From an uncultured Gemmatimonadales bacterium (GTDB lineage: Bacteria; Gemmatimonadota; Gemmatimonadetes; Gemmatimonadales; Gemmatimonadaceae), in NCBI GenBank assembly GCA_963793305.1, contig CAWBZV010000005.1, forward strand, positions 512,001 through 576,000: 64,000 nt of DNA, in the 5' to 3' direction. The stretch's first letter is position 1, and every line of letters begins with the position of its first letter. Position numbers and translations under genes: made by a program. Under the pieces are notes generated by a model, which saw only the letters and a list, made by a program, of their open reading frames with translations, did not search any database and was not told the origin of the DNA. Below are positions 2,990-62,734 of this stretch, in pieces.

Positions 2990-4085
2990 TCACCGCAAGC
3001 TGATCTCTTGGTAGACGAGGCCAACCAGCGCTTCCGCCATATTGTCAAATTCCTTCGAGAGATCCTTGTCATTTCCGGCAAATCGTTGCCGGAACGGCGT
3101 GAGATCCACGCTTCCCTTGACCTCGTCGAAGTTGGCGAACTTGCCGTGGCCGGATTTCCCTAGCGCGTCGTTCATTTGATCCACCGCGCTCTTCATGAAA
3201 TCTCTGATCAGGTAGATGTGCGTCCTGTCGTGCAGCACCGGTCCGTGACCCGGCACGAACGCGGTCGCATCCAGCTGGGCGAGCTTGTCGAGCGTTTGGA
3301 TCCACTCGCCGGGATAGCCGTCGTACATGGAGGTCAGCGGATACCCCACGAGATCGCCCGTCATCACGATGCGTTCTTTGGGGAGATAGGCCACGGCGTC
3401 ACCCGCCGTGTTGCCGCGTCCCAGGAACTTGACCTGGACCTCTCGATTGCCCAAGTCAATGCTGAAATCGTGATCAAAGGCGAGCGTGGCGCTCTGGAAC
3501 CGGGTCTTCGCGATCTCCGCCATAATCGGTACGCGTTGGGCGAGATAATTCTTGATCTCTGTCTTCCGGGCGTCCGTCAAGGGCTTGCCGTCGAAACCCT
3601 TTCCGCTGTCCAGCCGTTGTTGATACTCGGCGTTGGACTGTTTCTCACGCAACTCCGACGTCGGCCCGTAGCGGTCCATGTCTTTCTTCGCTTCCACCGT
3701 GGCGATGAAGGTCGTCGCGGGAAAGGCATCCATGTAAGCGCGGTTCGCGAAGTTGTGGTCGTTGTGGAAGTGCGTCGTCAGCACGAAGCTGACCGGCTTG
3801 TCCGTCCACTGGCGGATTTGGGCGATGTCTTCCCGGGCATCCGAGGGCATAAATCCGGCATCGACCACGAAGACCTGCCGGTCGCCGATGATCACCGTCG
3901 TGTTACTGCTCCCGACGCCAAGCTGCTCGATCTTTGTGCTGGATCTCATAGACGCCGTCGGCGAGCTTCGTCACTTTCCGTTCCGCTTGGCCGGACAGCG
4001 GCTGCGCCGCCGCGCCGAGTCCGAGCGCCATCATACACAGGTATGGGCGGAGCGAATTGCCGAGCGAATTGCCGCGAAACGCCAT
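2990..4085 (-). CDS. Secreted MBL-fold metallo-hydrolase (cyclase-like); +1 frameshift at ~3929
   Basis: THFHNDH, GRGNTAGD and VPGHG motifs; the paralog at 58.5-59 kb lacks the extra G and is in frame at that site. Confidence 0.85.
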
Positions 4086-4165
4086 TGGGTCTCCGGAAGC
4101 GGATGGCAGGGTGTGGAGCGGTTGAGCCCACTGCAGTAGCTACGCTAGGGGGGGCGAGCGTCCGT

Positions 4166-4183
4166 GTATTGAACGATCCCAAT
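4166..4183 (-). promoter_or_regulatory. 18-bp repeated promoter motif, copy 1 (ATTGGGATCGTTCAATAC)
   Basis: 18-bp spacer then TAGCGT; points at the MBL gene. Confidence 0.65.
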
Positions 4184-4259
4184 GCGATGGTCGAACGAAC
4201 CGGCACGAAATAGTCGGTCCGTGCACAGACAGTCGTGGCCGGCCGAAGCCGGAGAACAG

Positions 4260-4277
4260 GTTGCATTCATCCAAGAC
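4260..4277 (+). promoter_or_regulatory. Motif copy 2 (GTTGCATTCATCCAAGAC)
   Basis: 19-bp spacer then CAACGT, followed by GGAG and a small ORF. Confidence 0.6.
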
Positions 4278-30270: not shown

Positions 30271-30288
30271 GTTGCGTCCGTTCAAGAC
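30271..30288 (+). promoter_or_regulatory. Motif copy 10 (GTTGCGTCCGTTCAAGAC)
   Basis: 19-bp spacer then AATACT. Confidence 0.75.
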
Positions 30289-30464
30289 TGGCCGAACATA
30301 CGTCGCCAATACTCAACTATACCGAAAACAGGGTCAAGCGCCGCGGTTGCGGTGACAGGCGACCTGCCGGGCGGGACGGCCACAACCATGGATAGGATGA
30401 GATCCTCACGCACTACGCGAAAGCGATCGTGCGCTCGTGTGACACCCTGGAGGAGGATGGTGCC

Positions 30465-31016
30465 ATGCTTTGTCTGACGATGGCCGTATTGCTGACGGTG
30501 AGACCGTCACCGCTACCCGAGCCGCTACCCGAACTGGCGGCGATCGACCTGACAACCGAGGTGGCCGCGCCTGTGGACTCGGTCTGGAGCGCGTGGACGA
30601 CGCAGGCTGGAGTCACATCGTTCTTCGCGCCCGCGGCGCATGTGGAGCTCCGGATGGGTGGGTCCTACGACATCTACTTTCATCCTGAGGCGGCGGCTGG
30701 CCAGCGTGGCGGCGAGGGACTCCGGGTTCTGAGCTACCTACCGCGTCACATGATGTCGTTCGAGTGGATGGCCCCGCCGGAGTTCACGCGGGTGAACGAG
30801 CACCGCACCTTCGTGGTCGTGACGATGGACTCGATCGGACCCCGACGCACCCGCGTGACGCTCTCACACCGCGGATGGTATTGGGATGACGCGGACTGGC
30901 GACAGGTGCACGGGTTCTTCGAACAGGCGTGGCCAATGGTGCTGCGCAATCTTCGTCACCGGTTCGAGGTAGGGCCCATCGACTGGAAGGACCCGAACTT
31001 CAACTACGGCGGGTAG
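30465..31016 (+). CDS. SRPBCC/AHSA1-domain protein with signal peptide
   Basis: GGAGGAGG RBS; APVDSVWSAWTT, GGSYDIYF, SFEWMAPP, TRVTLSHRGW. Confidence 0.85.
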   Translation: MLCLTMAVLLTVRPSPLPEPLPELAAIDLTTEVAAPVDSVWSAWTTQAGVTSFFAPAAHVELRMGGSYDIYFHPEAAAGQRGGEGLRVLSYLPRHMMSFEWMAPPEFTRVNEHRTFVVVTMDSIGPRRTRVTLSHRGWYWDDADWRQVHGFFEQAWPMVLRNLRHRFEVGPIDWKDPNFNYGG

Positions 31017-31056: not shown

Positions 31057-31106
31057 AAAAAACACGACGCGGACCACCTGGAGAGGATAGGTGGCCCGCG
31101 CCGCGT
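31057..31106 (-). terminator. Rho-independent terminator
   Basis: 18-bp stem fully paired only on the - strand (3 G.U pairs), followed by a U-run. Confidence 0.8.
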
Positions 31107-31128
31107 CCTATGCAGCATTCGTGCAGAC
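31057..31128 (-). ncRNA. Candidate small RNA (~70 nt)
   Basis: Motif copy 11, 18 bp, TATTCT upstream; ends in an 18-bp stem with AUCCUCUCC loop and U-tract. Confidence 0.5.
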
Positions 31129-31158
31129 GGCTGTAGAATAGTGCCAGTCACCATGCCG

Positions 31159-31176
31159 ATATTGAATGAACCCAAC
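31159..31176 (-). promoter_or_regulatory. Motif copy 11 (GTTGGGTTCATTCAATAT)
   Basis: 18-bp spacer then TATTCT. Confidence 0.65.
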
Positions 31177-31188
31177 ATCGATCTACCT

Positions 31189-31206
31189 GTTTCGTTCATT
31201 CAAGAA
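31189..31206 (+). promoter_or_regulatory. Motif copy 12 (GTTTCGTTCATTCAAGAA)
   Basis: 18-bp spacer, TATGGT, 6 bp, then ATG. Confidence 0.65.
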
Positions 31207-31236
31207 CCGTTGGCCGTCCCGCAATATGGTGCTCGG

Positions 31237-32037
31237 ATGATGAAGAACGTGTTGCTGGCGGTACTGGCCGTTCTGTGCGGGCGCCCAGCGGCTGCGCAGA
31301 CGGGGTTTCTGGATCGTACGATCACCCTGGGTGGGGAGTCGTATCGCTACCAGGTGTATGTGCCGGCCGAGTATTCGCGGAGCACGACCTGGCCGCTGAT
31401 CGTCTCGCTGCATGGTGGCGGGCGGCAGGGGACTGACGGTCTCCAACCTACGCAGATAGCGTTCGCCAGTCGGATCCGTGACAACCGGGCGGCGTTTCCG
31501 GCGATCGTGGTGTTTCCGCAGGCGCGACCGAATACGCGGTTCATGTATCCGGAGATGCAGAATCTGGTGATGGCGGAGATGCGCCGGACGATCCAGGAGT
31601 ATCGCATCGACACACTGCGCGTGTACCTGAACGCGCATTCGATGGGGGCGGAAGGAGCGTATCGCATCGCCTATCGGTGGCCGGGGACGTTCGCGGCGCT
31701 GGCGCTGTCAGCCGGGCAAGTCGAGATCCCGAATCCTCCGTACCCGCAGTCTGACATCGACATCGACCATAAAGCGAACGCGTTCACGACGGCGAGCGAT
31801 CCGTTCGCCGCGCTGGCGGAACGGGTCAAGCGGATCCCGATCTGGCTCTTTCACAGTGACTCGGATGAGGCGATGCCGGTCGAGCAGTCGCGGCAGTTGG
31901 TGGCGGCGCTCAAGAAGGTTGGGGCCAACGTGCACTACACGGAGTATCAGGGGATCAAGCACGACGAGGCGGCGCGACGGGCGTGGGGCGACAGCACGGT
32001 TCTCGCATGGCTCTTCGCGCAACGGCGGCAGAAGTGA
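31237..32037 (+). CDS. Secreted alpha/beta hydrolase (predicted peptidase/esterase)
   Basis: QTGFLDRT, LHGGG, FPAIVVFPQ, AHSMG, PIWLFH..SD. Confidence 0.85.
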   Translation: MMKNVLLAVLAVLCGRPAAAQTGFLDRTITLGGESYRYQVYVPAEYSRSTTWPLIVSLHGGGRQGTDGLQPTQIAFASRIRDNRAAFPAIVVFPQARPNTRFMYPEMQNLVMAEMRRTIQEYRIDTLRVYLNAHSMGAEGAYRIAYRWPGTFAALALSAGQVEIPNPPYPQSDIDIDHKANAFTTASDPFAALAERVKRIPIWLFHSDSDEAMPVEQSRQLVAALKKVGANVHYTEYQGIKHDEAARRAWGDSTVLAWLFAQRRQK

Positions 32038-32071: not shown

Positions 32072-33248
32072 TTAGTCTGGTGTCGGCCCGACATAGGATT
32101 CGGCGAGGCTCGTGAGCGCCGCCTCGGATCGAGTCACGTAGTCGAGCTCCGCGAGCTGCCGGCGATAGTCGAACGCATTGCCGTCTGGGTTGCGGTGTAG
32201 CATCGCCGTCATCCAGTATGCGAAGCGCTGCGCCGCCCAGACGCGCGCCAGGCAGGTGTCCGAGTAGGCGTCGAGCAAGTCCTCACGGCCGCGGCGATAG
32301 TAGGCCGCCAATGCTCGCGCGAGCGTACGGAACGTCGGCGAGCGCGAGATTCAAGCCCTTTGCTCCAGTCGGAGGCACGATGTGCGCTGCGTCGCCGGCC
32401 AAGAAGAGGTGATTGAAGCGCATCGGCTCTATCACGAAGCTGCGCATTCCCGTAATGCCCTTCTGGAGAATCTCACCGTGGTTCGGGCGCCATCCGTCGG
32501 CACACGCGAACCGTGTGTCGAGCTCCTCCCAGATCCGCTCATCGGTCCATGGGGCGAGCGGCTCGTCGGCGTCGCATTGGAGGTAGAGGCGGGTCACGGT
32601 CGAGGAGCGCATGCTGAAAAGGGCGAACCCGCGCTCGTGCAATGCATAGACGAGCTCACTGGAGCTCGGCGCGGCCTGGGCGAGGATGCCGAGCCAGCCG
32701 AAAGGGTAGGTGCGGTCGTAGGCGACGTAGGCTGCCGGGGGCACCGATGCGCGTGAGATGCCATGGAATCCGTCGCATCCGGCGAGGAAATCGCAGGTGA
32801 TGTTTTGTTCTTCGCCCGCGATCCGGCAGCGGATCCGGGGGGTCGGTGTGTCGAGGGCGGCGATGGAGACGGATTCGACCTCGAAGTACAACGGACGCCC
32901 GGTGGCGCGGCGGGACGCGATGAGATCTTTGACGACCTCGTTCTGTCCGTAGATCGTGATGGACCGTCCGTTGGTCAGCGCTTCGAAATCAACGTGGTGT
33001 CGGCGCCCGCCAAAGCAGAGCCACATGCCGCTGTGTCGCATGCCCTCGCGCAGTAGCCGTTCGCCGACGCCGGCGGCCTCCAGGAGGCGGACGGACCCGT
33101 GCTCCAGGACACCGGCCCGAACCCGATCGACCACGTAATCGCTCGATTTGTTCTCGACGATGACCGAGTCGATCCCTTCCAGGTGGAGGAGGTGGCCGAG
33201 CATGAGGCCGGCCGGTCCCGCGCCAATGATCCCGACTTGTGTTCGCAC
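32072..33248 (-). CDS. pobA: 4-hydroxybenzoate 3-monooxygenase; +1 frameshift at ~32330
   Basis: MRTQVGIIGAGPAGL, RAGVLE, GCDGFHG, YPFGWLGIL, GDAAHIVPPTGAKGLNLA. Confidence 0.93.
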
Positions 33249-33303
33249 GTGGTGACGAGACGGAAGTGTTGATTTCGACCGCTACTGGTGACACGATAAC
33301 GTC

Positions 33304-34011
33304 GTGGCTCCGACAACGTATCCGCGACCCGAGCCGGACGACCAGCCGCCCGTCATGTATCCGCCGTATCGCGCCACGGTGCGCCGGGCGCCGGCCGAGC
33401 CGATGATCCGCATCCCCCATACCTTGTCGGAGTTGACGGGACCGTGGTATGGCGACTTACCGCTGGGCGAGACCGACAACGATCTTACGCGACAGCACAC
33501 GGGCGAACCACTCGGCGAGCGGATCATCGTCACGGGACGGGTCCTCGATGAGGATGGCCGGCCGATCCCACGGGCGCTGGTGGAGGTGTGGCAGTGCAAT
33601 GCGGGGGGCCGGTATCGGCACGGGCGCGACAACCATCCTGCCCCCCTGGATCCGAACTTCACGGGGGCTGGTCGAACGATCACCGACGATCAAGGGCGCT
33701 ATCGGTTCGTGACGATCAAGCCCGGCGCGTACCCGTGGCAGAATCACGCCAACGCGTGGCGCCCGGCGCACATTCATTTCTCGCTCTTCGGCTCCTGCTT
33801 CATCACGCGGATGGTCACCCAGATGTATTTCCCGGGTGACCCGCTGCTCGCTGGCGATCCGATCTATCAGTCCGTGGGGACCGAGCGTGGGCGGCGACGA
33901 CTCGTCGCGACGTACGACCCGGCGCTGTCCGAGCCGGAATGGGCGCTCGGCTACCAGTTCGATTTTGTGTTGCGCGGACGCAATGCAACGCCGTTCGAGG
34001 GGACGCCGTGA
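33304..34011 (+). CDS. pcaH: Protocatechuate 3,4-dioxygenase beta subunit
   Basis: DNDLT, GERIIVTGRVLD, WQCNAGGRYRH, LDPNF, WRPAHIHFS, TQMYFPGDPL. Confidence 0.95.
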   Translation: MAPTTYPRPEPDDQPPVMYPPYRATVRRAPAEPMIRIPHTLSELTGPWYGDLPLGETDNDLTRQHTGEPLGERIIVTGRVLDEDGRPIPRALVEVWQCNAGGRYRHGRDNHPAPLDPNFTGAGRTITDDQGRYRFVTIKPGAYPWQNHANAWRPAHIHFSLFGSCFITRMVTQMYFPGDPLLAGDPIYQSVGTERGRRRLVATYDPALSEPEWALGYQFDFVLRGRNATPFEGTP

Positions 34012-34577
34012 CGGACTGCGTGCCGTCGCAGACTGTTGGCCCATTCTTTCACCTGGGGCTCTGCGCCGATGAACGGTGGGGTCGCATCGCGAGTCCGGGC
34101 GCTGCTGGCGACCACGTGCAGCTGCGGATCGCGGTCCTGGACGGTGACGGGGCGCCGGTAACGGATGCGCTGATCGAACTGTGGCAGGCCGATGCGAAAG
34201 GACGGTACCATCATCCGCGCGACCCAGGCGCGTCCAGTGTCGATCCGGCGTTCGGGGGGTTCGGGCGATTGCCCACCGACGCCGAGGGTGAGTGCGTCTT
34301 CGAGACCATACGGCCTGGGGGCGTGAGTGACGCTCGGGGCGGTCGGCAGGCCTCGCACGTGAACGTCTCGGTGTTCGCGCGTGGTCTTCTCCGACGGCTC
34401 GTCACGCGGGTGTATTTTGCTGACGATCCTGGTCTCGACACGGACGCCGTCCTGTTGCTCGTTCCGGCGAGCCGTCGACGCACGTTGATCGCGACCCCCG
34501 TTGCTGGACCGCTTGGCGGATGGCGTCACGTGATCCGGTTGCAAGGCGAGGGCGAAACCGTGTTCTTCGACCTGTAG
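34008..34577 (+). CDS. pcaG: Protocatechuate 3,4-dioxygenase alpha subunit
   Basis: PSQTVGPFFHLGL, WQADA, FARGLL, IRLQGEGETVFFD. Confidence 0.95.
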   Translation: MTDCVPSQTVGPFFHLGLCADERWGRIASPGAAGDHVQLRIAVLDGDGAPVTDALIELWQADAKGRYHHPRDPGASSVDPAFGGFGRLPTDAEGECVFETIRPGGVSDARGGRQASHVNVSVFARGLLRRLVTRVYFADDPGLDTDAVLLLVPASRRRTLIATPVAGPLGGWRHVIRLQGEGETVFFDL

Positions 34578-34585
34578 GCGTGGGC

Positions 34586-35725
34586 ATGCCCGTTCGCTTG
34601 ATCGAGTGTCTGGTGTCGACCGATGAGATGGCGGACCTCTTCTCGGATCGCGCGGTCCTCGAAGCCATGCTGCGCTTCGAGGTGGGGCTGGCGCGGGCCC
34701 AAGCCCGATTGGGTCTCATCCCCGCTCGCGCGGCGGAGTCGATTGCTCGGGCGGCGGACCCGGACCAGTTCGACACCGCGGTGTTGGCGCGGGACGCGCG
34801 GCGATCGGCGACGCCGGTCGTTCCGCTCGTGGATGCACTGACCGAGCGGGTTCGGGCGATCGAGCCGACGGACGCGGCGTTCGTGCACTTGGGAACGACG
34901 AGTCAGGATGTGGCCGACACCGCGCTCGTGCTGATGCTACGGCGCGCAGAGGGTGTGCTCACTGGCGATCACGAGCGGCTCACGCGTGCGCTGCGCGAGC
35001 TGTCCGGGCGCCACGCGGCGACGGTCATGGTTGCTCGGACGCTCCTGCAGCCGGCGCAGGCAACGACATTCGGGTATAAGGTCGCGCTTTCCCTGGCGTC
35101 GATTCAGCGGAGCTGGCGCGACCTGCGTGGTGCGCTCGCCGGTGCGATCCAACTCCAGTTCGGCGGGGCAGCGGGCACGCTCGCAGCGTACGCGGACGCC
35201 CACGCGCTCGCAGCCGAACTCGGTCGGGAGCTCGAGCTCCCGGTACCATTGGCGCCATGGCATACGCATCGCGACCGACTCGCGAGCGCAGTCGCCAGCT
35301 TGGGCATCTACGGCGCGAGCCTGGCGAAGCTGGCGCGCGATCTGACGCTCCTCATGCAAGTCGAGGTGGGCGAGGTGTCGGAGCCGGGCGGACGGTCGTC
35401 ATCCATGCCGCACAAGCGGAACCCGGCGGGGTCGGTCGTGGCACTCGCTTCCTTCGCGAGAATTCCGGGGCTCGTCGGCACATACTTGAGTCTCATGGTC
35501 CAGGAGCACGAGCGCGCGGCAGGTCACTGGCAGGCGGAGTGGCGGACGGTTGCCGACGTCGTGACGGGCACGGCGAGCGCGTTGGCGGCGGTCGCCGACG
35601 CCGTCGAACATCTCGAGGTGCGGCAGGATCGCATGCGGGCCAACGTGGAGTCCACGGTGCACGATGCGAATGTGGGCGCGGCCGAGGCATTGCGCCGGCG
35701 ACTGCTCGACGAGGCGGCGGAGTAA
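34586..35725 (+). CDS. pcaB: 3-carboxy-cis,cis-muconate cycloisomerase
   Basis: HLGTTSQD, QFGGAAGTL, SSSMPHKRNP, QEHERAAG; operon context. Confidence 0.9.
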   Translation: MPVRLIECLVSTDEMADLFSDRAVLEAMLRFEVGLARAQARLGLIPARAAESIARAADPDQFDTAVLARDARRSATPVVPLVDALTERVRAIEPTDAAFVHLGTTSQDVADTALVLMLRRAEGVLTGDHERLTRALRELSGRHAATVMVARTLLQPAQATTFGYKVALSLASIQRSWRDLRGALAGAIQLQFGGAAGTLAAYADAHALAAELGRELELPVPLAPWHTHRDRLASAVASLGIYGASLAKLARDLTLLMQVEVGEVSEPGGRSSSMPHKRNPAGSVVALASFARIPGLVGTYLSLMVQEHERAAGHWQAEWRTVADVVTGTASALAAVADAVEHLEVRQDRMRANVESTVHDANVGAAEALRRRLLDEAAE

Positions 35726-35729
35726 CGCC

Positions 35730-36981
35730 GTGCCGTTCGCGACCGTTGGGGGACTTCGGCACTACTATAGAATCGACGGCGCCGACGACCGACCGACACT
35801 CGTTCTGGCGCACGCGCTGGGGTGCGATCACACCCTGTGGGAGGCCCAGGCGACCGCGTTGGCGGCGCGCTTTCGGGTGGTTCGTTACGACGTGCGCGGG
35901 CACGGCGCGACGGAGGCGACCACTGGCGACTATAGCATTGAGATGCTCGCGCGGGACGCGTTGGGGCTGGCCGACGAGTTGGGCATTCGAGCGATTCGCG
36001 TTCTGCGGGCTGTCGCTCGGGGGCATGATCGGTCAGTGGTTGGCGGCGCGGGCGCCAGAACGCGTGACGGCCCTCATCCTGGCCAACACCACGGCGCGCC
36101 TGATCGATCCCAGCGTCATGGACGATCGGCGCCGGACGGTCCTGGAGCAGGGGATCGCCGCGGTCGCCGACGAGGTGCTGTCGCGGTTCTTCATGCCTCA
36201 GACGTTGAGATCGTCTTCCGCCGTGGTGGCGAATGTGCACCGAGTGCTTGGCGCGACGAACCCGGTAGGGTATGGCGGTTGCTGCGCGGCGATCCGGGAC
36301 ATGGATCAGACCGAGATGGTGAGCGGGATTCGGGTGCCGACGCTCATCATCGTCGGTGACCACGACACCTCAGCGCCGTGGCTGGGGCACCGTGACGTGC
36401 TCGCGTCGCGCATACCGGATGCGCGGGTGGTGCGGCTTCCGGCCGCCCACTTGTCCAACCTCGAGCGGCCGCGGTCGTTCACCGCGGCGCTGTGGCGGTT
36501 TCTGGTGCCGGAGTCGGAAGATGCGCTCGAAGCCGGCGCGGCGAAGCGACGCGAGATCTTGGGCGACGCGCATGTGGACCGGGCCGATGCGGCGACGACG
36601 GATTTCACGCGGGCGTTCCAGCAACTCATCACGCGGTACGCGTGGGGCACGATCTGGCAACGGCCTGATCTCGATGATCGCACGCGCCGCGTGCTCGTGT
36701 TGGTGATCACGGCTGCGCTCGGGCGCTGGGAGGAGTTTCGGATGCACGTGCGCGCTGGGCTGGCGCACGGGCTGGAGCCGTGCGACGTCGAGGAGGCGCT
36801 GCTCCAGGTGGCGGTCTACGCCGGTCTACCGGCGGCAAACACGGGATTTCAGATCGCTTCAGAACGAGATGCACGCGTAGCACGCGACGTGGCGAGTGTT
36901 GTTACTTCCGGGAACTCGTCCGACTCTCGGGCAGTAGGCTGGATTCGAACAAGGCGACCGAGCCATCGGGCAAGGTGGTGA
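35730..36981 (+). CDS. pcaD: Fused 3-oxoadipate enol-lactonase / 4-carboxymuconolactone decarboxylase (PcaL-type); +1 frameshift at ~35987; C-terminus probably run-on
   Basis: YDVRGHG, GLSLGG, AAHLSNLE, then RREILGDAHVDR, FQQLITRYAWGTIW, LLQVAVYAGLPAAN. Confidence 0.88.
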
Positions 36982-58373: not shown

Positions 58374-58518
58374 AGGCCGAACATAATCACTGGGTGGGCC
58401 ACCCGCGCTCCCTCGGCGACAGTTCTACACACTGCTTTCCATGGCGGCGGCAAAAGGTTCCTCACTTGTGTCAGCGCATGCCGCCGCGGCCGTGGATCAG
58501 CGCGCGGACGCAGGCGGA

Positions 58519-58979
58519 TCACCGCAAGCTTATCTCCTGATAGACGAGCTCAGTAAGCGCCTCTGCCTCATTGTTAAATTGTTTCGAGAGATCCTGGTCA
58601 TTTCCGGCAAATCGTTGCCGGAACGGCGTGAGATCCACGCTTCCCTTGACCTCGTCGAAGCTGGCGAACTTGCCGTGGCCGGGAAGCTGACCGGCTTGTC
58701 CGTCCACTGGCGGATTTGGGCGATGTCTTCCCGGGCATCCGAGGGCATAAATCCGGCATCGACCACGAAGACCTGCCGGTCGCCGATGATCACCGTCGTG
58801 TTACTGCTCCCGACGCCAAGCTGCTCATCTTTGTGCTGGATCTCATAGACGCCGTCGGCGAGCTTCGTCACTTTCCGTTCCGTCTGGCCCGACAGCGGCT
58901 GTGCCGCCGCGAGTCCGAGCGCCATCATACACAGGTATGGCCGGAGCGAATCGCCGAGTGAGCGACTGCGAAACGTCAT
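58519..58979 (-). pseudogene. Second copy of the MBL gene at 2990-4085 with a ~630-bp internal deletion
   Basis: Highly similar DNA at both ends; junction at 58682/58683 removes the equivalent of 3154-3784, including THFHNDH. Confidence 0.9.
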
Positions 58980-59044
58980 TGGGGATCTCCTGAAGTGGTG
59001 CAGCCATGGCGGGAGCCGAAACTAAGGGTGGCGCCAGCGTCGGC

Positions 59045-59062
59045 GTCTTGCACGAAGACAAC
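59045..59062 (-). promoter_or_regulatory. Motif copy 20 (GTTGTCTTCGTGCAAGAC)
   Basis: Equivalent position to copy 1; TAGTTT at 20 bp. Confidence 0.6.
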
Positions 59063-59078
59063 ACGATGGTCGGATCGG

Positions 59079-61534: not shown

Positions 61535-61552
61535 GTTGGATTTGTTCTAGAC
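61535..61552 (+). promoter_or_regulatory. Motif copy 22 (GTTGGATTTGTTCTAGAC)
   Basis: Intergenic, ~260 bp upstream of the AraC gene; no clear -10. Confidence 0.6.
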
Positions 61553-61809: not shown

Positions 61810-62734
61810 ATGGCGCGACACGAGAGGCGGCCGCAACTGGCGCGCGGTGAGTACTACGGCCGTGTCGTGACGCATCGCGATACGGCGGGGCTGCGGTTGA
61901 CCGATCTGCATCACGCGCGGGGCGTGTTCTTGCCGGAACACACGCACGAGTGCGCGTATTTTTGGCTCCTGCTGTCTGGCGCGTATCGAGAGCACATCGG
62001 GTCGAGGGAGTACCCGCATTGGCCGTTCTCGTTCGGATACTGTCCGATCGGGCTCGAGCATCGGGATGAGGTGGGTCGGTGTGGCGCCCGGTTCTTCGCG
62101 ATCGAGCTCGACGCGCACGGTGCGCAGATGATCGCGGACCTGAACCGTCCGATGAGCACGGCACCGTTCGAGGTGCACGACACGTTGGCGTTCAGCGCGC
62201 TCCTCCAGCTCCACACGGAGTTCTTGCGCGCCCGCGACGGTGGGTATGAGGTGGAGTGCCTCACCGCGGAAACGCTGACGGCCGAGTTCATCGGCTTCGC
62301 GTTCGAGCCCCGGGCCCGGCCCGCGCACCGCCAACCGCGCTGGCTCGCTCCGGTGATCGAGTATCTCGACGCGCACTATGCCCATGTCATCCGCATTAGC
62401 ACGTTGGCGGCCAGTGCGGGAGTGCATCAGGTACACCTGGCGCGCGTGTTTCGCGAGGTCCACCGCTGCAGCATTGCGCAGTATCTGACGACGTTGCGCG
62501 TGCGGCGCGCCTGTTCGTTGCTCGAACGTCGGAGAGCTGACGCTGAGCCAGATTGCGCTACTGACGGGATTCTCGGATCAGAGTCATTTCACGCGCGCCT
62601 TTACGGCCACGGTCGGCTGTTCGCCTGGGGCCTTCCGGCGGGCCGTGTTCCCGCGCGTGCGGTTGGTGCCGGATGCAGCGACACACGCCGCACCGTGTTA
62701 TTCCGAGGGGATTCGTTCGAGTCAGTCGGCGTGA
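61810..62734 (+). CDS. AraC/XylS-family transcriptional regulator; +1 frameshift at ~62533
   Basis: Cupin part LPEHTHECAYFWLLLSGAYRE; PRWL; GVHQVHLARVFR; corrected tail LSQIALLTGFSDQSHFTRAF..GCSPGAFRR. Confidence 0.9.

Follow-up and report, generated by a model that had tools for sequence, protein, structure and literature searches.

Anatomy of the Intergenic Element

The window analyzed here, a 64,000-nt stretch of contig C5, includes a 220-nt intergenic region bounded by an SRPBCC/AHSA1-domain gene and an alpha/beta-hydrolase gene (hereafter the esterase), both on the plus strand as the initial annotation had described. On the minus strand this region contains a box standing at the -35 position, a -10 hexamer, a single hairpin, and a terminal run of U residues (Table 1). 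The predicted RNA is convergent with the SRPBCC gene, whose stop codon lies 40 nt from the RNA 3' end. The earlier description gave the same order of box, 18 bp, TATTCT, hairpin, and U tract, with ~25 nt between hexamer and stem; that gap is 28 nt, reaching to position 31107, and the stem begins 29 nt past the -10. The box, previously numbered copy 11, is copy 10 of the 22 in our list for the window, the two numberings being different. No ribosome-binding site or gene fragment was found between the promoter and the hairpin, nor 3' of the hairpin.

Table 1. Features of the locus and related elements of the island (window positions unless prefixed C5 or L134).
Feature	Position	Strand	Remarks
Box ahead of SRPBCC gene	30271..30288	+	30.0 bits; kept in relative L058
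Candidate target, SRPBCC ribosome-binding and start region	30436..30469	+	as many as 27 pairs predicted with the 31-nt hairpin core
SRPBCC/AHSA1-domain gene	30465..31016	+	PF08327; 183 aa; hydrophobic N-terminus
Predicted ~72-nt RNA	31057..31128	-	start G31128, inferred from -10 spacing
U tract of predicted intrinsic terminator	31057..31062	-	six U, the first of which closes the stem
Stem 3' arm	31062..31079	-	carries the U of all three G·U pairs
Loop AUCCUCUCC	31080..31088	-	9 nt; anti-Shine-Dalgarno-like
Stem 5' arm	31089..31106	-	18 bp
-10 hexamer TATTCT	31135..31140	-	+19..+24 after the box; 18-nt spacer between
Box GTTGGGTTCATTCAATAT	31159..31176	-	18 bp, at -35 position; consensus GTTGSRTTYRTTCAAGAC; 28.0 bits
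Partner box, divergent, esterase promoter	31189..31206	+	24.1 bits
Alpha/beta-hydrolase gene (esterase/peptidase-like)	31237..32037	+	266 aa; start 31 nt past box
Frameshifted AraC/XylS paralog of probable activator	61810..62734	+	intact copy outside the window, C5:586758-587684
Paralogous hairpin	C5:476925-476959 (L134:1502-1536)	+	leader of SusC-like TonB-dependent receptor gene C5:476991

All 18 pairs of the stem form on the minus strand, exactly three of them G·U in a base-by-base check; on the plus strand these three become A·C mismatches, which bears out the claim that the stem pairs fully on one strand only. The minus-strand fold reaches -36.4 kcal/mol (z -6.9; none of 200 shuffles is as stable), and the loop is fully open, at a computed opening cost of 0.005 kcal/mol. 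The plus-strand fold (-24.7 kcal/mol, z -4.4) contains bulges and has no U tract 3' of the hairpin. Across the 5.7-Mb genome, the hairpin ranks first among 1112 hairpins preceding a T5 run and first among 66 strict terminator-like elements, and at 31057-31106 it is the sole strict terminator-like element within the C5:430-612 kb island discussed below. None of 1500 random 100-nt windows of contig C5 folds at or below -30 kcal/mol, the best reaching -25.1. Rfam at gathering score returned no match in the window; the best sub-threshold match (16.5 bits versus a gathering score of 104) is to a generic miRNA hairpin. A generic promoter/terminator scan left the site at 31057-31176 unlisted because the box stands in for the -35 element and the 9-nt loop exceeds the 8-nt limit of that scan. 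The element is real, non-random, and uncatalogued. It is probably transcribed, as a small RNA whose kind of mechanism is already known.

The plus-strand hairpin lies at a normal distance from the SRPBCC stop and, given its fold energy, could serve as a terminator or pause site for that gene; alternatively, the region could be a tiny coding unit, comprising a 27-codon minus-strand ORF at 31118 or a 16-codon plus-strand ORF behind GGAGAGGA. We consider both highly improbable. The A·C mismatches and missing U tract argue against the former, while the minus-strand ORF lacks a Shine-Dalgarno sequence and runs through the terminator, and a coding role for the element was rejected. Moreover, neither leaves an explanation for a minus-strand promoter that is in register with others of its kind.

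The Box and Its Island

Near-exact matches to the box number 23 genome-wide, 12 of which fall in ~3% of the genome. With a matrix trained on island copies and a site threshold of 20 bits, 58 sites were found in C5:435-610 kb and 5 elsewhere in the genome. In any other genome searched there are at most 6 copies, and no multi-copy box was found among 300 family genomes. The island spans ~180 kb, has the GC content of the genome average, and is bounded by two tRNA genes, with integrase- and mobilisation-like fragments recognized by eye at its right end. Its genes mostly encode secreted peptidases, hydrolases, ABC permeases, and SusC/D pairs. Genes for 4-hydroxybenzoate/protocatechuate catabolism also occur in the island (window 32283-36981), with no box ahead of them, as do near-identical duplicates (86-100%) of a metallo-beta-lactamase-fold gene with its promoter at window 2990-4266 and 58517-59072, the second of which appears fragmented.

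Of the 58 island boxes, 35 are followed by A at +20 and 36 by T at +24, the mark of a -10 hexamer, and the TATTCT of the RNA (+19..+24) is in register with it. Many island genes begin ~31 nt (28-35 nt) past a box, and this spacing places the transcription start site, from which a start at G31128 and a length of ~72 nt are inferred for the RNA. Many island mRNAs are therefore probably leaderless, including that of the esterase (window 31189-31237), in which the start codon is 31 nt past the box. Because the RNA and the SRPBCC gene each stand behind a box, the two are predicted to be co-activated.

Box-driven leaders contain a hairpin of -20 kcal/mol or below in 3 of 58 cases versus 0.5% of random windows. 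Several other island boxes have no clear downstream gene, and head-to-head pairs of boxes mostly have one gene per side. Long leader hairpins follow the boxes at C5:503296 (-), 444307 (+), and 593327 (-), two of which stand ahead of SusC-like genes; the hairpin past C5:503296 carries its 9-nt pyrimidine loop on a stem of 12 bp.

Probable Regulator of the Box

Two LytS/LytTR pairs in the window made LytTR the first guess for the regulator of the box; 5 of the 25 LytTR domains in the genome are in the island. Scanning genome contigs for the box plus a -10 yielded 42 stretches, many of them probably due to chance, and following 10 of these, picked by taxon, gave 13 foreign loci with 22 flanking ORFs scanned. 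AraC/XylS genes adjoin the box in 5 of the 13, and no LytTR gene was found among the 22 ORFs. For four of the five AraC proteins, the best matches in this genome include C5:586758-587684 (first in all four) and window 61810-62734; the fifth has no match here. When foreign homologs of the island AraC were examined instead (n = 11), the two closest loci had a strong box and two more a moderate box beside the gene, two others had a weak or distant box, and five had none.

Because AraC genes adjoin foreign boxes and boxes adjoin foreign AraC homologs, the likeliest role of the box is that of an AraC/XylS site in the -35 position, read by an island-encoded activator, and LytTR was set aside as the less likely regulator on the basis of this linkage. 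The copy of the probable activator within the window is 72% identical to the intact one over 239 aa, is frameshifted within its helix-turn-helix region, and has its own upstream box at 61535. No close relative of the activator was found among solved structures. Foreign loci combining a box and an AraC gene (L101, L102, L105, L110, L112, L115, and L116) share the -10 spacing of the island and carry Acidobacteria, Gemmatimonadales, Planctomycetota, and Myxococcota labels, together with other relatives. The box is thereby a site of an AraC subfamily that crosses phyla, and no published description of it was found in open-access text. For an AraC box found in several phyla and expanded to 58 copies in a single island, these assignments name a probable regulator and its site.

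Strain Variation and Searches for Homologs

Four of 11 DNA runs were examined for strain variation, two of which (X3 and X8) had no coverage of the hairpin. Strain X1 is represented by one contig at a depth of 10.5. Of the changes that it carries in the intergenic region, 12 substitutions and one 4-nt deletion, none touches the 52-nt stretch of hairpin and U tract, the -10, or either of the boxes. The probability that these changes miss the 52-nt hairpin by chance is 0.027, or 0.061 when the cluster near the esterase start is left out. In strain X6 the hairpin is also unchanged, at a depth of 3. Support for selection on the hairpin is modest and comes essentially from one strain. The ~70-nt RNA first proposed becomes a predicted discrete, box-driven transcript of ~72 nt, supported well by its anatomy and modestly by strain variation. 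Strain X1 contains a dense cluster of 12 substitutions at 31216-31252, around the -10 and start of the esterase, which suggests a recombination patch.

BLAST against 60 relatives found no homolog of the element beyond this genome and near strains. A first covariance model found none in 4 congeners and 149 family genomes, where the matches, which were inspected, were at chance level; a second, run on 4 chosen and 149 family genomes, gave 12 matches at E <= 0.1 (about the number expected by chance), none with an upstream box. No box occurs at the esterase homolog loci found in 26 foreign genomes of 300, and no comparable downstream hairpin was seen on inspection of the SRPBCC homolog loci found in 8 of 400. 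Two viral pattern searches returned 0 and 0 matches, and a plasmid search returned chance matches only. The unpublished genomes G012, G334, G335, and G402 are counted in negative tallies only. With no homolog in the other genomes searched, the element may be strain-level.

A metagenome scan identified a single locus, L058, on a contig that ends inside a gene. In this relative (2640-2745), all that is left of LytS ahead of the SRPBCC promoter is the first ~75 nt of the gene, and other genes have taken its place, a pattern that reads as cassette turnover around a kept promoter.

A Paralogous Hairpin in a SusC-Like Leader

A single-sequence covariance model yielded a weak second match in the island (E 0.088), 67 nt past another box and part of a ~70-nt rod. 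Among 11.4 million positions, no other ungapped match to the 35-nt core of the hairpin is as good (27 of 35 identities versus 25 for the next); the 35-nt window was fixed after the match had been seen, so the tail estimate of ~0.05 is generous. The case for paralogy is strengthened by the position behind a box and by the retention of pairing: 11 of 12 pairs are kept, and the changes comprise one on both sides of a pair (U-A to C-G) and three on one side only. The paralog loop is CUCCUCUCC, and both hairpins share UCCUCUCC, the last 8 nt of AUCCUCUCC. Covariation, which had been put forward as a check on the RNA, comes down to this one paralog and its single two-sided change; the pattern fits a kept loop on a covarying stem, but with two sequences it is descriptive only (249 of 500 shuffles reach the same level). 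No third copy of the hairpin was found in this genome or in 149 family genomes.

The leader is particular to the island gene. A core-genome SusC copy (C3:222133), 94% identical, has a different promoter and an unrelated leader, the orthologs in two congeners also have an unrelated leader, and the leaders of 32 other SusC-like genes lack the hairpin by motif scan and by eye (one of them, L176, is cut at the contig start and is uninformative). As the leaders outside the island are unrelated, box and hairpin appear to travel together within it. The paralog lacks a U tract and has a different outer stem; these features are not common to the leader copy, which suggests that they were gained in the free RNA.

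The paralog, which the initial annotation had not noted, also raises the possibility that the element is an orphaned promoter and leader whose gene has been lost. The short RNA would then be functionless, and the hairpin would be kept only as a terminator that prevents antisense transcription of the SRPBCC gene. Consistent with this are the role of the homologous hairpin as a 5' leader element, the excess of stable hairpins in other box-driven leaders, the gene-less boxes elsewhere against a background of head-to-head pairs that mostly serve a gene on each side, and the gene loss seen in L058. This is the main rival to the mechanism proposed below, but we regard it as rather unlikely, since no remnant of a ribosome-binding site or gene is found within or past the unit, the outer stem and U tract were probably gained rather than inherited, and the kept loop would be unexplained. 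In addition, strain X1 shows no change in the box or the -10, although their loss would be the simplest means of silencing; the numbers here are small.

Alternatively, the free RNA, driven by a promoter like that of the SusC-like gene, could be a decoy that titrates a putative factor reading the UCCUCUCC hairpin in the SusC-like leader, following the logic of CsrB but with one site. A loop and inner stem common to a leader and a free RNA of one regulon would fit such a role, as would the restriction of the leader to the island copy of SusC. We judge this quite improbable: there are only two copies of the hairpin in the genome, and Hfq, CsrA, and ProQ have no match in the genome, which is 92% complete. 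No candidate factor emerged. A decoy of the CsrB/RsmZ type was rejected, as the transcribed strand shows UCC rather than repeated GGA loops and CsrA is among the proteins unmatched.

Predicted Targets

Genes were called with a crude gene model (5689 genes), and start regions above a score cut were ranked by their predicted pairing with the hairpin. For duplex energy against the hairpin core, the SRPBCC start region stands 9th of 5076 overall and 3rd of the 266 starts that contain GGAGG. When the opening of the hairpin is charged, it ranks 10 of 5037 overall, 8 of 266 among GGAGG starts, and 1 of 142 among island genes, a better placement than the initial annotation had claimed for this neighbor. 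Adding the opening of the target lowers it to rank 37 of the best 250 (net -8.3 kcal/mol), and allowing the 5' single strand of the RNA to pair lowers it to 455 of 5074. Stem-shuffled hairpins that retain the loop match the SRPBCC start equally well in 39 of 2000 cases, and the paralog does worse against it (rank 379 of 5074). Relative L058 retains most of the site (-34.3 kcal/mol), which would be expected of any ribosome-binding site.

The top matches of the loop are Shine-Dalgarno sites, and the loop fits many such sites; island genes account for 10 of the 251 top targets versus 7.1 expected, so there is no enrichment. The neighboring SRPBCC mRNA is a good candidate target, but not a unique one. 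The proposal that the RNA provides a post-transcriptional arm of the regulon gains from the high placement of the 30465 start and is left unproven by the drop in rank on target opening, the unselective loop, and the unenriched island genes. The next island candidates are C5:453723 and C5:576579. Feedback on the activator was rejected (its start region ranks 1244 of 5037). The start regions of the esterase and of SusC rank poorly as well, and pairing with them was likewise rejected.

The RNA lies on the strand opposite the SRPBCC gene, 40 nt beyond its stop, and is driven, as that gene is, by a copy of the box; it could also be a cis-antisense RNA or insulator that pairs perfectly with the SRPBCC 3' end or with esterase read-through, leading to cleavage or uncoupling, with the loop incidental. 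Since a U tract is missing from the plus strand, the SRPBCC mRNA may continue through the hairpin. We hold it to be improbable, as it depends on a putative 3' end for the SRPBCC mRNA and requires neither the loop nor the paralog. The two neighbors, an SRPBCC protein of 183 aa and a hydrolase of 266 aa, offer no small hydrophobic toxin ORF of the sort expected beside a type I antitoxin.

Proposed Mechanism

We tentatively propose, at somewhat short of an even chance, that the element is a ~72-nt RepG/CyaR-like RNA whose terminator loop would pair with Shine-Dalgarno sites. The features of that kind visible in the DNA are its own promoter, an intrinsic terminator, and an accessible loop complementary to ribosome-binding sites. 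From the anatomy, promoter register, rarity, and paralogy described above, we infer transcription, activator binding, pairing, and repression as follows.

The island AraC/XylS activator would bind the 18-bp box and drive transcription from ~31128, and termination at the U tract would release a stable single-hairpin RNA; both steps are well supported. In addition to the RNA, the activator is expected to turn on ~50 genes, most of which encode secreted hydrolases, peptidases, and transporters. Less surely, the loop AUCCUCUCC would nucleate on GGAG-rich ribosome-binding sites and one stem arm would extend the pairing, blocking translation, probably without Hfq. Against this step, full pairing requires that the -36 kcal/mol stem be opened. 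The best candidate is the co-activated SRPBCC mRNA, in which case the RNA and the SRPBCC gene would form an incoherent feed-forward loop limiting one output of the regulon.

The RNA may have originated from a box and leader-hairpin module such as that at C5:476991, later acquiring a longer stem and the U tract. It is also conceivable, if somewhat unlikely, that we see a small RNA at birth: a copied promoter-leader module to which a terminator was added, with its inner stem fitted to the ribosome-binding site of the neighbor, or else a decoy for a SusC-leader factor. If so, the newborn RNA would be a chaperone-independent regulator that still shares an island with both its parent leader and its target.

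A single genome, a single informative strain, and a single paralog carry the case for function, and the pairing of a loop with Shine-Dalgarno sequences is not a new mechanism. If real, the RNA would bring riboregulation through a loop, apparently free of Hfq, to a little-studied group that is probably the Gemmatimonadota, and would offer a testable origin of a small RNA, with a parent-like leader, the free RNA, and a candidate target all within ~70 kb.

Comparison with Known RNAs

No published description of this RNA, or of any small RNA study of the phylum, was found in open-access text. Among known systems, GadY is a precedent for cis-antisense action, CsrB for decoy logic, and AgrA/RNAIII is an analogue within a LytTR regulon. 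CyaR and RsaE both have several elements and a separate terminator, and CyaR requires Hfq, unlike the RNA proposed here, whose genome shows no Hfq match at 92% completeness.

RepG of Helicobacter pylori uses a C/U-rich terminator loop to pair with a G-rich 5' leader, and its loop hairpin suffices for repression; RepG is conserved, while its partner is a variable G-repeat (PMC8295292). The element resembles it as a small intergenic RNA whose terminator loop is the proposed pairing site, and differs in that there is no sequence match and the predicted RNA is under an island activator box. In CyaR, an exposed C-rich loop on Shine-Dalgarno sites blocks initiation (PMC8862304). RsaE pairs with Shine-Dalgarno sequences through a C-rich motif, and the Rsa RNAs are expressed independently of Hfq (PMC2790875); the unpaired UCCC motif of RsaE/RoxS is absent here, where the loop has UCC twice.

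The Cuckoo/CcsR RNAs of Alphaproteobacteria have 2-4 hairpins, each with CCUCCUCCC, in which a 9-nt anti-Shine-Dalgarno-like pyrimidine loop is carried on a variable stem (PMC4615179). A hairpin with such a loop is common to both, whereas the RNA here has one stable hairpin that is also the predicted terminator and has different loops in the element and its paralog; membership in Cuckoo/CcsR was rejected because there is a single hairpin and the CCUCCUCCC motif is absent.

InvR, encoded in Salmonella SPI-1, offers the closest likeness in circuit logic, its sequence having been compared through Rfam only. There, island AraC-like activators induce an island small RNA and its target, the small RNA covers the ribosome-binding site of the target, and InvR feeds back on the regulator hilA (PMC11925239). 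The circuit predicted here differs in its target: the activator start is a poor match, and the best candidate is an output gene.
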